Source: an uncultured Bryobacterales bacterium
GTDB taxonomy: Bacteria > Acidobacteriota > Terriglobia > Bryobacterales > UBA6623
Direction of reading: 5' to 3'
DNA length: 64,000 nt
Assembly (NCBI GenBank): GCA_958295955.1
Contig: OY282420.1
Location: 829,899-893,898, forward strand
Shown: positions 6,783-10,740 of the stretch, one piece after another
Numbering within the stretch: the stretch's first letter is position 1
Layout of the letters: each line of letters begins with the position of its first letter
Made by a program: the position numbers and the translations under genes
Notes under the pieces: generated by a model
The model's input: only the letters and a program-made list of their open reading frames with translations
Told to the model about the DNA's origin: nothing
Database searches by the model: none

Positions 6783-8129
6783 TTATATTGGCGACGGTGC
6801 TCTGACGGCGCCCCCAGTGGCCTCCGCGGACCGGGGTCGGCTCTTCTCGGGAAAGAAGTCGCCGTTCCGTTGCACAACATACCTGACGGGCTTGGTCTGC
6901 TTTTCCAGGACGCCTTCCGCAACGAGCCGTTTTATCCAATCTTGGGCTTGACCTTTGGTGACGTCCAGTTCCTCAGCAACTTCCGCGGCGTTTTTGGGTT
7001 TTGTGAGGATGCGGAGAATCAGCGCCCGCACCGTTTCTTGTAATTTTTCGGCGGAACCGGAAGTTGGAGCGCCCGTCGGTTTCCACCGCTCCGGTCGGGC
7101 TTCTTTTTGCCGTCCCGGTTTCTTGGGGTTTTGTTCAACGCGAAACGGCAGACCGCCTTGGGCCGGCACGCTTGGCGCTTGGGAGGCGGCGGCGCGAAAA
7201 GCCGCGGCAAGGCCGGCCGCGTCTTGCGGATTGGGCCACCGCAGGGCTCCCTTTTTCTCCAGAGCGATGAGACCTTCGGAAGCTTCACCGGTCGAACGCA
7301 CATAAACAGGCGTCGCGCGCAATTTTTCCAATTGTTCGATTGAGCCATTCCACGTACCGCCCTTGTTGGGGTCCGCGTTCACCACCAGAGCCGCATCGGC
7401 CAAGCCGTAGATGACCTTGTTCCGCTGCATCGCGTGCCCCGGATGAAACCTCGCTCGCGGGTCGTAGGGCGAGATCAGCGCCAGCCGCCCCTCCCGTATC
7501 CGGTTCCGATGATCCCTGTTCATGCTCGTACTTTCGAGGTCGCCCGCCAGCACGCCAACGACTTTCCCTCCGGTTTCCAGAGCTCCCTTCATGGCCGCCA
7601 GGTCGACGCCCCGCGCCCCGCCGGAGACCACGTTTCTTCGCGCGCCGGCGGCAAGGATCGCAGCGCCGCGCGCGTATTCGAGCAACGACTCATTCGCCTT
7701 GCGCGAGCCGACAATTGCCAAGGCGCCGGGCGTATTCACAATTTCCTGCCGCCCGCAGCCGTAGAGCAAGACTGGGGCATGCTTCTTGAGCCGCTCCTTG
7801 AGCATACGGGGATATGCGTCGTCGGCGCGACTCACTACCCAAATCGCCCGCGTCTGCCAGCGCTCAACGGCTTGGCTGAGCAAAAACCCTCTGCCGAGCA
7901 AAGCCGCGAGGCGCGCCTTGTCGACCGCGGCGCCGCACGCATCCCTCAGTGTGTCCGCGGCAGGTTTCAGTAAATCGGCCGGCTCCGCCTGGTTTTCTTT
8001 CAGGCGTCGGGCCAACCTCTCATATTCTCCGGCTGTGAAGGGTTTGACGTTTTCCTTATTTTTACCCGCAATTAAAGGCGCGGTCAGCAGTAGAATTGCC
8101 TTGGTATTCAGGGAAAGCGTCTCGCTCAT
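6783..8129 (-). CDS. DprA/Smf-domain protein with C-terminal wHTH (RqlI-like)
   Basis: [46 protein letters not shown]; C-terminal HTH ([18 protein letters not shown]); ATG 8129 overlaps the helicase stop (ATGA). Confidence 0.9.
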
Positions 8130-10273
8130 TGTCCGCCCCTTGCCTCGGCCAGCGCCAACGGCCACACTTCGCCCGCCCCGCGCGAGCGAAGCAGCCAAGC
8201 CGCGACGGTGAAGGTCCACCGCGAATCCACCATATCATCAACCAGAAGTACCGGTCCGGCAAGCATATCCTTGTCAACGACCGCCAGCGAACCATCGACA
8301 TTGCGAGCCTGATAGGTACTGTTTGCCATCGTTTTCTGTTCCGGGCGGTTCTCCGTCTTTACGAGTGCCGGCCGGAACGGGAGTTCAAGCGCTTCGGCGA
8401 GGCGCCGAGCGAAATCAGGCGCCAGATCCGGGCGGCGGCACGAGGGAACGGCAGTCACCCATTCGGGAGCAGGGTCGGGATTCCACTCCTGCACCAGTTC
8501 CGTGCAGGCAGTCACCAAGTCGTCGGAAAAACGGTCGTTCCGGTACTTCCCTTGCCGCACCGAACTCCCCCAGCCGGCATCGCCCCAGACGCAGAGCGCC
8601 TTTCCAGGTTGAGCTTGGAGATGAGGATCGATTCGCCCGCAGAGACCGTATTGCGGCAATCCTCCGGAAGACCATTGCAGACGAGGTTCGATCGGCAGGC
8701 TCGTGCGGCGCAAGAAAACGATCGCCTCGCGAATGAGTTCCTGGTCCACGGACGATGGCAAGTTCGGCAAATCCGGCGGCGGATCGCTGCCGGGTTCGCC
8801 GTCCAGCGCCCGGATCAAAAACGCCATGTGGCCGGAAGTCAACTCTACGTATTCCTGCATCTGCTCCTGTTCCGCCTGCCGCAGTTTTGTGAGCCGCCGC
8901 GCCCGTTCCCAGAAGGCATCGTTCAGCGCCGCGGCCGTGAGTTGCCACTTCGCCCCTTGCTTCGCGAGAGGGGCCGGAGACTCCAGGGAAAGCAGTTGGA
9001 GCGTCTTCTGTATCCGGCCGGAGCTGACGTTGACCTTGCTCTCGATCCGGCTCATCGACAGGCCCTCCGGCGCCGCCTCCAAGGCCGCGAGCACTTCTTC
9101 GACCTCCTCGCGTGTCGGGAATGCGCTCCCGACACAGTAGTCGTTGATTTCGGTCTCCTCGCGGCCGCTCAACAACACCCCGTAAGCATGGTCGATCGCG
9201 CGGCCGGCCCGCCCCACCTGCTGGTAATAAGCCATCACGGAGCCCGGGGCTTGGTAGTGAATGACAAAGGCCAGGTCCGGTTTATCGAAGCCCATTCCCA
9301 GCGCAACCGTTGCAACCAGCGCCTTCACCTCATTATTGAGCAAAGCCTGCTCCAACTCCGTCCGGCGGTCGTCTGTCTCGCTTGTGTAGGCTTCTACTAC
9401 GATTTTGCGCGACTTGAGCCATGCAGCCGTCTGATTCGCGTCGCGAACCGTGAGCGAGTAAACGATTCCGCTTCCCGGAAGTTTGGGTATTTGTTCCGCC
9501 AGCCACGCGAGCCGTTCGGCCGTCCCCGGCAAGCGAATGGTTTGCAGCGACAGTGACGGTCTACTGAGATCGCCCCGCGAGATTGCCAGGTTCGGCCCCA
9601 GAATTCCCTTCAAATCGGCCATTACGCGGCTGTTCGCCGTCGCCGTGGTCGCCAGTAGCCGGAGATTCGGCGGCATCTTGGTCCAGCATTTTGTTCATCG
9701 CGGTTCTCGCGTCGCCGTGGTCGCCAGTAGCCGGAGATTCGGCGGCAGCGTTCGGACAATGCGTTCGATCAGTCGATAGTGCGGACGGAAATCGTGGCCC
9801 CAATCGGAGATACAATGCGCTTCGTCGATGACGACCAGCGCGACCCGATCTGCAATCGCGGCCAACACCTCGTTGAGAAAACGCTCGTTTGCCAGCCGTT
9901 CCGGAGAAATGAGCAGGATATCCACCCTGCCGTGCTGAACGGCTTGCTCAACCTCGCTCCATTGTTCCTGGTTGTCGGAGTTGATCGTCTCGGCTCTGAT
10001 TCCCATCCGACTCGCCGCGGCAATCTGATTGCGCATCAGCGCGAGCAGCGGGCTGACAAGCAGCGCAGGCCCCATACCCGCTTCCCGCAGCAGCTTTGTT
10101 GCAATGAAGTAAACGAAGCTTTTGCCCCAACCGGTCTTCTGCACGACCAGTATCCGGTTATTTCCGCTGACGACCTGCCGGATGGCCTCTTCCTGGCCTT
10201 CGCGAAACACCGCGCCGGGCCGTCCGCAGCCCATTCGTAGAAGTTCCAGAGCGCGGGCCGGCTGATACATCAT
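8126..10273 (-). pseudogene. RecQ-like helicase with C-terminal ComF-like PRTase domain (RqlH-like), interrupted by a 72-bp in-frame insertion carrying TGA
   Basis: N-part (9695-10273): QKTGWGKS, SPLLALM, SPER, DEAHCISDWGHDFRP. C-part (8126-9676): ATVALGMGFDKPD, YYQQVGRAGR, PRPP-binding [12 protein letters not shown]. Both ORFs are in the same frame and both contain PPNLRLLATTAT. Confidence 0.88.
9638..9747. repeat. Perfect 38-bp direct repeat flanking a 34-bp unique insert (repeat-spacer-repeat)
   Basis: CGTCGCCGTGGTCGCCAGTAGCCGGAGATTCGGCGGCA at 9638-9675 and 9710-9747; insert TCTTGGTCCAGCATTTTGTTCATCGCGGTTCTCG at 9676-9709. Confidence 0.95.
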
Positions 10274-10311
10274 CGACTTGCTCTGAGTACGCCACGCCTG
10301 GATGCGCGGCG

Positions 10312-10740
10312 TCAGGCCGCGGGCGCGGCGCGGGCATGCCACTCAGCGGACTCTTCGCCCGGCTCGGGCAGGATGCGCCCCGCTTCCATCGTCCACGAGG
10401 CGGGCGCTTCGCTGATGCGGCCGCTGACTGCGCTTGCGGGAACGCCGGCGATCTCGCTGAATTTTTCGAGCAGACCGTCCAGGATGCGCCGCTTGACCTG
10501 GGGATGCCGGCCGGCCCGGTTGCCGCCGGCAATGAAATACGGAGTGTCGTAGCGCATGGCGCCGCTGCCGTGCGAATCGGCAATCTCGCCGCTTCCCGAA
10601 ACTTCCAGAAAAACGACCTGCACGAAGCTGCGGGGCGCAGCGGAAATGCCGCAATGCACGTCGGTAAAGGCAACGGCAATTTCGCGGCGCTGCTCGTAAG
10701 ACAACGAATCCGGCGGAATCAGGCAACGGTAGAACGGCAT
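10312..10740 (-). CDS. Tautomerase-superfamily protein (Pro1; cis-CaaD-like size)
   Basis: Starts M-P; AFTDVHC..APRSFVQVVF, RAGR, EAPASWTMEAGRILPEPGEE. Confidence 0.75.
   Translation of the reverse strand: MPFYRCLIPPDSLSYEQRREIAVAFTDVHCGISAAPRSFVQVVFLEVSGSGEIADSHGSGAMRYDTPYFIAGGNRAGRHPQVKRRILDGLLEKFSEIAGVPASAVSGRISEAPASWTMEAGRILPEPGEESAEWHARAAPAA

Follow-up and report, generated by a model that had tools for sequence, protein, structure and literature searches.

In a 64,000-nucleotide stretch of the genome of an uncultured Bryobacterales bacterium (assembly GCA_958295955.1, contig OY282420.1, positions 829,899–893,898 of the forward strand; hereafter the window), a minus-strand gene that we assign from its sequence to psyrT is interrupted by a short repeat-insert-repeat scar at window positions 9638–9747. 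PsyrT, a RecQ-like helicase-PRTase, is the toxin of the PsyrTA (RqlHI) defence pair. We consider it likely that the scar was left by a single off-target (non-canonical) spacer integration, carried out by a Cas4-Cas1-Cas2 adaptation module of the host. A natural off-target acquisition was also the original prediction, made from the letters of the window alone. It is supported by the geometry of the scar, the cas genes of the genome, two arrays of matching dimensions, sister scars elsewhere in the genome and empty sites.

The scar consists of two copies of a 38-nucleotide (nt) target, at 9638–9675 and 9710–9747, which a repeat search of the window found to be 100% identical and spaced 72 nt apart. 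Between them locates a 34-nt insert (9676–9709) with a GC content of 0.50 and without similarity to its surroundings. On the minus strand the first copy encodes helicase motif III (PPNLRLLATTAT), and the translation over the scar reads TLPPNLRLLATTAT-REPR*TKCWTKM-PPNLRLLATTAT-ANSRV. The extra 72 nt leave the frame of the gene intact but bring a TGA at 9695–9697, while the last base of the insert and the first two bases of the downstream copy form an in-frame ATG (9676–9674). The original prediction had described the perfect 38-bp duplication around an unrelated 34-bp insert, the frame-keeping gain of 72 bp with its added TGA, and the junction-created ATG at 9676; the sequence and the repeat search confirm the first, and the minus-strand translation confirms the other two.

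Neither the 34-mer nor the 38-mer has a second site in the 4.58-Mb, three-contig genome, where the closest other matches span 15 and 16 nt. The possibility that the insert derives from adjacent sequence was checked as well, and no source was found there or elsewhere in the genome. The scan for inverted pairs in 9000–10400 returned none, and the insert is without terminal inverted repeats. Being 34 nt long, non-coding and enclosed in a 38-nt duplication, it does not have the features of an insertion sequence (IS) or a transposon. Nor does the scar form a functional CRISPR array: it has two copies only, is placed within a coding gene and shows no relation to the repeats of the four arrays of the genome (A1–A4). 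The label 'neo-array' is therefore dropped here, as we find a single unit that is not growing. The small hairpin GCCGG-AGAT-TCGGC is present in the duplicated segment, and we saw no sign that it matters.

The dimensions of the scar correspond to those of the CRISPR systems of the host. Profile searches of the genome matched four Cas1 (one weak, 22.8 bits) and three Cas2. Array A1 (C1:1062237–1063932; positions so written are those in the genome) has 24 repeats of 37 nt and spacers of 34–38 nt (34 nt, 8; 35, 9; 36, 2; 37, 3; 38, 1), with a period of mostly 71–72 nt. It adjoins a type I-C set of Cas3, Cas5c, Cas8c, Cas7c, Cas4, Cas1c (411.6 bits) and Cas2. Array A2 (C1:3681974–3702521) has 285 identical repeats of 36 nt and spacers of mostly 35–38 nt (35 nt, 51; 36, 143; 37, 59; 38, 25; 39, 4; 40, 1; 26, 1), with a period of mostly 71–73 nt, and adjoins a type I-G set including a Cas4g/Cas1g fusion (742.5 bits). 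The maximal duplication of 38 nt, read as 37 plus one chance base or as 38, fits these repeats, and the insert, counted as 34–35 nt, fits these spacers. The expectation that the genome would hold cas1/cas2 and an array with a repeat plus spacer of about 72 nt is thus borne out twice (37 + 34–38 and 36 + 35–40). The psyrT scar is about 220 kb from the nearest cas1c.

The scar is not alone. We scanned the whole genome for isolated direct repeats, strictly (at least 31 of 36 matches, periods 40–130 nt) and in a relaxed form (at least 28 of 36 matches, periods 50–110 nt). In the strict scan 16 of the 32 repeats fell at periods of 71–73 nt and six at 81–84, with 0–2 at every other period. The relaxed scan gave 22 at 71–73 and seven at 80–84, with 0–1 elsewhere except at some multiples of three, namely 63 nt (6), 75 nt (3) and 66 and 102 nt (2 each). 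Neither scan has a peak at 61 or 66 nt, the periods of the I-E-like and II-C-like arrays of this genome.

Hand curation of the two scans kept 25 scars, leaving out eight candidates with 7–8 mismatches and four in tandem protein repeats. The search for other duplication-plus-insert scars of the same size, suggested with the original prediction, thereby yielded about 24 more in the genome, among them C1:740501, 760596 and 771645. Duplications over the 25 scars measure 35 nt (1), 36 (8), 37 (11), 38 (4) or 39 (1), inserts 33–37 or 44–47 nt, and periods 71 (3), 72 (14), 73 (2) or 81–84 nt (6). The repeats are perfect in 13 scars and differ by 1–5 mismatches in the others. Periods are multiples of three in 17 of the 25; coding and non-coding calls at the scars are unreliable in this GC-rich genome with its long spurious open frames, and we draw no conclusion on selection from this count.

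Some scars lie close together. C1:3853540 and 3855224 are 1.7 kb apart, C1:760596 and 771645 are 11 kb apart, and four scars, the helicase scar among them, fall within about 100 kb (740–840 kb). Such pairs and clusters possibly mark local hot regions. At C1:1649559–1649738 there are three 36-nt repeats with a period of 72 nt, enclosing the same 36-nt tandem-unit spacer twice; this resembles a scar that afterwards had its repeat-spacer unit doubled.

Comparison with relatives provides the empty site. In the congeners G005, G002 and G006 (85–91% identity) the gene runs without gap or stop at this place, the 38-mer being present once and the insert missing. Logan contigs were compared with the locus for four public runs of one sample, and in each run one contig joins 9637 directly to 9710 and skips the 72 nt; 38 letters fit on each side, at a depth of 6.7–27, with one differing letter per flank. 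Five further runs (X1–X4 and X9), which contained hardly any of the sequence words looked for, were left out of this comparison. Because of this join and these single differences, a near-identical strain with an intact gene must exist. The empty ancestral site with a single 38-mer is hence seen both in the three congeners and in the contigs of the four runs. Since congeners and public-run contigs alike have the uninterrupted site, the psyrT scar is a recent, polymorphic insertion.

Other scars extend the range of ages. C1:3853540 (37-nt duplication, insert of 47 nt) has a single 37-mer as its counterpart in G002, G004 and G005, and C1:4359949 a single copy in G006. In contrast to these, the scar at C1:641358–641465, whose copies differ by 5 mismatches, has both copies and the insert in the present genome, G002 and G005 and a diverged form in G004; G006 has a gap of exactly 72 nt at the site. 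As this scar is common to three or four species, the process is older than the split of several species in the genus, and its occurrence in the genomes of several species means that such scars are real in independent assemblies. At C1:1247469 the comparison with congeners shows no more than that the lengths differ by about 73 nt, and the neighbourhood of C1:3349728 is not conserved in them, so that the empty-site comparison is uninformative there. The congeners G002, G004 and G005 carry both I-C (37-nt repeat) and I-G (36-nt repeat) systems and G006 the I-G type, while no Cas1 was matched in G001 and G003.

The inserts fall into two kinds. Fourteen of the 25, including the one in the helicase gene, are unrelated unique sequences with a mean GC of 0.646, similar to that of the A1 spacers (0.652), the A2 spacers (0.605) and the genome (0.644). 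Searches in public collections were by exact match, except those of the genome itself, phages, plasmids and 300 relatives. For the helicase 34-mer, the best match among phages and plasmids had an E value of 0.8, and IMG/VR, metagenome contigs and genome contigs gave no exact match. A search of 300 further genomes of the order that allowed up to 3 mismatches found nothing, and the best match among the genome's own 352 CRISPR spacers was 10 nt. The proposed comparison of the insert with host genome, phages, plasmids and own spacers therefore returned no source. The inserts of C1:771645, 3566064 and 1661238 likewise had no exact match in IMG/VR.

The other eleven inserts consist of 10-nt units in tandem, which are of the TTCGCGTTCC, GGGTTCAGTC and GGGATTAAGT types. 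They lie at C1:63223, 522426, 760596, 1649559, 2660965, 3032826, 3349728, 3853540, 4025186, 4297863 and 4322355. Five measure 33–36 nt and six 44–47 nt, within duplications of 36–39 nt. In many of them CGCT.AAT stands near the start and CGCATA(G) at the end, and those of 3349728 and 3853540 are identical over 46 nt. These inserts are 93–97% identical to blocks within a repeated module of about 135 nt in the same genome; for example, the C1:522426 insert matches C1:3263782–3263816 at 34 of 35 positions and the C1:3032826 insert matches C1:3652763–3652806 at 41 of 44. A profile of the module places the inserts, where matched, in model positions 27–81 of 137, mostly 40–81.

The same sequence family is found inside a regular array. 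The spacer at the trailer end of A1 (C1:1063859–1063895), the oldest one and next to a degenerate final repeat, belongs to the 10-nt-unit family of the eleven inserts; elsewhere it matches best at 30 of 37 positions and keeps the register of the CGC|ATAG boundary. In A2, one spacer has a 25-nt match beside two copies of the module. These spacers connect the recurrent inserts with the CRISPR machinery and not with a transposon of its own kind. Self-primed adaptation, or breaks at the modules, might be the reason why this DNA is favoured.

Each module is made of a 10-nt tandem block followed by about 65 conserved nt with two 18-nt direct repeats, ending in CCTCGCGCA. Copies are at C1:2031179–2031315, 1187272–1187408, 1185611–1185745, 3652722–3652866, 1299113–1299249 and 3263717–3263856, in addition to weaker ones. 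A 132-nt member of the module family at C1:2031130 (module copy 2031179) lies between 50-nt perfect direct repeats. Rfam gave no match at E 0.1 or better for nine module-bearing loci. A 26-nt pattern of the block was absent, with up to 3 mismatches, from 60 other genomes of the family, and exact-match searches of metagenome and genome contigs gave nothing.

Inverted modules at C1:3644098 and C1:3652866 bound 8.7 kb that hold a Dcm-type methylase, an MmeI-like enzyme, an AbiV-like HEPN protein and a Schlafen/AlbA_2 protein, with a Vsr gene just outside. No transposase was recognised between them. This segment is possibly a mobile defence island. DUF29 genes were considered as partners of the modules and rejected: among 11 DUF29 matches, only the module copies C1:1185611 and 1187272 sit in a DUF29 cluster. 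That cluster, at C1:1185023–1189024, holds five DUF29 matches that share a strand and are interleaved with modules; at least three of the five are full length. Six further matches lie elsewhere, one of them (3665244–3665903) just upstream of the type I-G cas genes. A reverse-transcriptase origin of the 10-nt-repeat inserts is unlikely, as no RVT_1 match exists in the genome. Apart from the modules, we notice a 145-nt run of a 5-nt unit (CCCGA/GACCC) at C1:3891706–3891850.

The interrupted gene can be followed on both sides of the scar. The N-terminal fragment (9695–10342, minus strand) is a 215-codon open frame that carries RecQ-like helicase domain 1 with motifs I–III and ends at the TGA of the insert. 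The C-terminal fragment (8126–9676, minus strand), a 516-codon frame open from the junction ATG, carries the duplicated motif III, Helicase_C and a PRTase-like tail. Pfam places DEAD in the upstream piece (85 bits) and Helicase_C in the downstream piece, and NCBIfam gives a RecQ-family helicase match on both. The PADLOC PsyrT profile matches the N-terminal fragment with 297.6 bits (positions 2–188 of 689) and the C-terminal fragment with 605.7 bits (175–686 of 689), and the overlap of the two matches is the duplicated PPNLRLLATTAT. The 'toxic helicase' of the original prediction was accordingly right in kind.

Downstream of psyrT, the gene of the DprA-like antitoxin, psyrA (6783–8219, minus strand), is uninterrupted. 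It matches PADLOC PsyrA with 415.8 bits (profile 3–396 of 398), while the NCBIfam DprA match of 92.5 bits is under the model cut-off of 191. Its annotated GTG start is probably too far upstream. The gene pair thus has the make-up of PsyrTA, a RecQ-like helicase-PRTase toxin adjoining a DprA-like antitoxin, with a toxin frame that the insert TGA closes. The break follows helicase motif III and precedes the second RecA-like domain, leaving the PRTase-bearing part in the downstream frame. Upstream of the new ATG only a weak GGA is visible. The split psyrT would be non-functional, though the PRTase-bearing fragment could be translated from the new ATG.

According to one study, PsyrTA, also known as RqlHI, is an anti-phage toxin-antitoxin pair with a DprA-like antitoxin and a toxin that has a PRTase domain (bioRxiv 10.1101/2022.05.11.491447). 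Another describes RqlH as a RecQ-like helicase whose toxicity lies in the PRTase domain and is restrained by RqlI (PMC4670107). Measured against these accounts, the pair in the window has the same order of psyrT and psyrA, a RecQ-like helicase with a PRTase-like tail and a DprA-like antitoxin. It differs in that the toxin gene is split by a 72-nt scar with a stop codon. The domain in which RqlH toxicity is placed (PMC4670107) sits here in the downstream fragment, which is possibly still made from the new ATG.

On the basis of these observations, we propose how the event may have proceeded. Cas1-Cas2, with Cas4, would attack the two strands of psyrT at points some 37 bp from each other, in the way in which it attacks both borders of a CRISPR repeat, and would join a prespacer of about 35 bp. 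Gap repair would then double the 37–38-bp target on both sides of the insert. Such an event would put a stop codon in PsyrT between its two RecA-like helicase domains and leave the antitoxin gene intact. The scar allele probably survives since loss of the toxin costs little. We infer the integrase as the agent, and slightly favour type I-C over I-G as its source, because a 38-nt maximal repeat with a period of 72 nt needs one chance base match when read as 37 + 35 and two when read as 36 + 36, and because of the spacer-length frequencies of the arrays.

Several observations weigh against this account. The targets are unlike leader-repeat junctions: their mean number of matches is 18.67 for A1 against 17.92 in the control (standard deviation 2.33), and 18.25 against 17.59 for A2, so that neither array gives a significant resemblance. 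Inspection by eye of 11 oriented target sites gave no motif. No protospacer or protospacer-adjacent motif (PAM) was found for the helicase 34-mer in any collection searched. The only unique insert with a genomic source, that of C1:3805009, matches C1:2179324–2179358 at 34 of 35 positions with no adjoining TTC, which we take to be the type I-C PAM. The six inserts of 44–47 nt exceed every A1 or A2 spacer. Finally, the insert is in none of the contigs of the four runs, and the scar allele is supported by this assembly alone.

The last point raises the question of whether the scar exists in the DNA of the organism at all. Public data across it showed the un-inserted allele only, so that no independent reads confirm the scar, and the 34-mer is equally missing from metagenome and genome contig collections searched by exact match. 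Positions 9654–9704 are without cover in the contigs of the four runs; contigs drop minority variants, and the absence of the allele from the sample does not follow. The public contigs, moreover, come from a different strain, as their differing letter on each flank indicates. Against an assembly or sequencing artefact also stand 24 other scars of like geometry, some with diverged repeats and one common to independent assemblies of other species. We know of no artefact that would double a 38-nt target without error on either side of unique DNA, and regard this explanation as highly improbable. An error of replication or repair, by template switching or by filler DNA at a staggered break without a dedicated integrase, is scarcely more probable. 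It would account for an insert without a known source, as filler DNA at breaks can be of unknown origin. However, it would not yield a fixed 35–39-nt duplication and a 71–73-nt period at 19 loci, and the insert has no microhomology between its ends and the flanks and is not copied from nearby.

A somewhat less remote, still improbable explanation is another integrase or transposase that makes staggered cuts of about 37 bp and pastes short DNA, maybe linked to the modules with 10-nt blocks. Such an enzyme would be suited to the 11 of 25 inserts that come from one sequence family with common end motifs, to the six of them that are longer than the range of array spacers, and to two arrangements of the modules: the 132-nt member between its 50-nt direct repeats and the inverted pair around the 8.7-kb defence island. 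On the other hand, the 14 unrelated and unique inserts are unexpected from a sequence-specific element. The duplication lengths fit the 37- and 36-nt CRISPR repeats, and a block of the family sits as a regular spacer in A1. Neither a transposase between the inverted modules nor an RVT_1 reverse transcriptase offers itself as the enzyme. Off-target integration by a Cas4-Cas1-Cas2 module of the host has the most support.

A broader form of this idea goes further, and we put it forward as tentative and rather doubtful. The CRISPR integrase would be a long-running insertional mutagen of its own chromosome, which adds in-frame segments of 24 codons, has knocked out a defence toxin, and in about half of the events pastes fragments of self-encoded 10-nt blocks. 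The blocks lie in terminal modules that flank the defence island. They could be a non-autonomous micro-element mobilised by Cas4-Cas1-Cas2. Alternatively, they could be harvested by self-primed adaptation, set off by the related I-C trailer spacer; self-spacers could then survive only at ectopic sites, where they are unable to guide interference.

The genome has two further arrays. A3 (C1:557746–560077) consists of 36 repeats of 36 nt with spacers of 28–31 nt and a period of about 66 nt, and has a Cas1/Cas2 pair nearby. A4 (C1:2024684–2025385) consists of 12 repeats of 29 nt with spacers of 32–33 nt and a period of about 61 nt, and has the weak Cas1 match nearby. We read A3 as a candidate II-C-like and A4 as a candidate I-E-like array. 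At the type I-G locus, Cas4g/Cas1g is a long open frame (C1:3679640–3681790), with the Cas2 match there in another frame, and we claim no Cas2-Cas4-Cas1 fusion. An RT-Cas1 identity for the long frame was considered and is wrong. In the very large array A2, one two-spacer block is duplicated (3701147/3701289 and 3701218/3701360), and several spacers partly match the chromosome near 3.72–3.74 Mb.

Non-canonical integration forming 'neo-CRISPR' units was reported by Nivala, Shipman and Church in 2018 (Nat Microbiol 3:310), as cited in PMC7054753, PMC6698737 and bioRxiv 10.1101/148544. According to these sources the case is that of E. coli over-producing Cas1-Cas2, with circumstantial evidence only from two other species. 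The units share with our scars a spacer-length insert enclosed by a non-CRISPR target that is duplicated over the length of a repeat, in a genome with Cas1-Cas2. The present scars differ in being natural, in numbering about 25 in one genome and in being tied to Cas4-containing I-C and I-G systems; the age of one is such that several species share it, and one interrupts a toxin gene. None of the 25 scars has grown past one spacer, the three-repeat unit at C1:1649559 having the same spacer twice.

Canonical leader-end acquisition by I-C and I-G systems is similar in its 36–37-bp duplication and inserts of 34–37 nt. In contrast, the psyrT scar has no leader, a target that is unlike the repeat and lies inside a coding gene, and no PAM evidence. 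Insertion of an IS, a transposon or a casposon resembles the scar as a staggered-cut insertion with direct target duplication. Such elements make target duplications of 2–15 bp; here there are no terminal inverted repeats, and the insert encodes nothing. The psyrT event belongs to a kind that is already known. It differs from the published case in the natural setting, the number of scars, the I-C and I-G systems, the age range and PsyrT as the target.

Off-target spacer integration is known mainly from E. coli that over-produces Cas1-Cas2, and its natural frequency and cost matter. This genome offers a natural, testable case, with about 25 scars that have the dimensions of two resident Cas4-containing systems and that range in age from one common to several species to one still polymorphic in the population. 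As the scars have the dimensions of the genome's own arrays, the integrase is most likely hitting ordinary genes here. The visible consequences are a split defence toxin gene and several genes with in-frame additions of 24 codons. The scars are also material for studying, without experiment, which targets and prespacers the I-C and I-G integrases prefer. With the 10-nt-repeat inserts recurring as they do, one may ask whether the integrase is supplied with certain self DNA by preference. Under off-target integration, the CRISPR adaptation machinery would be a measurable source of insertional mutation and protein-length variation.

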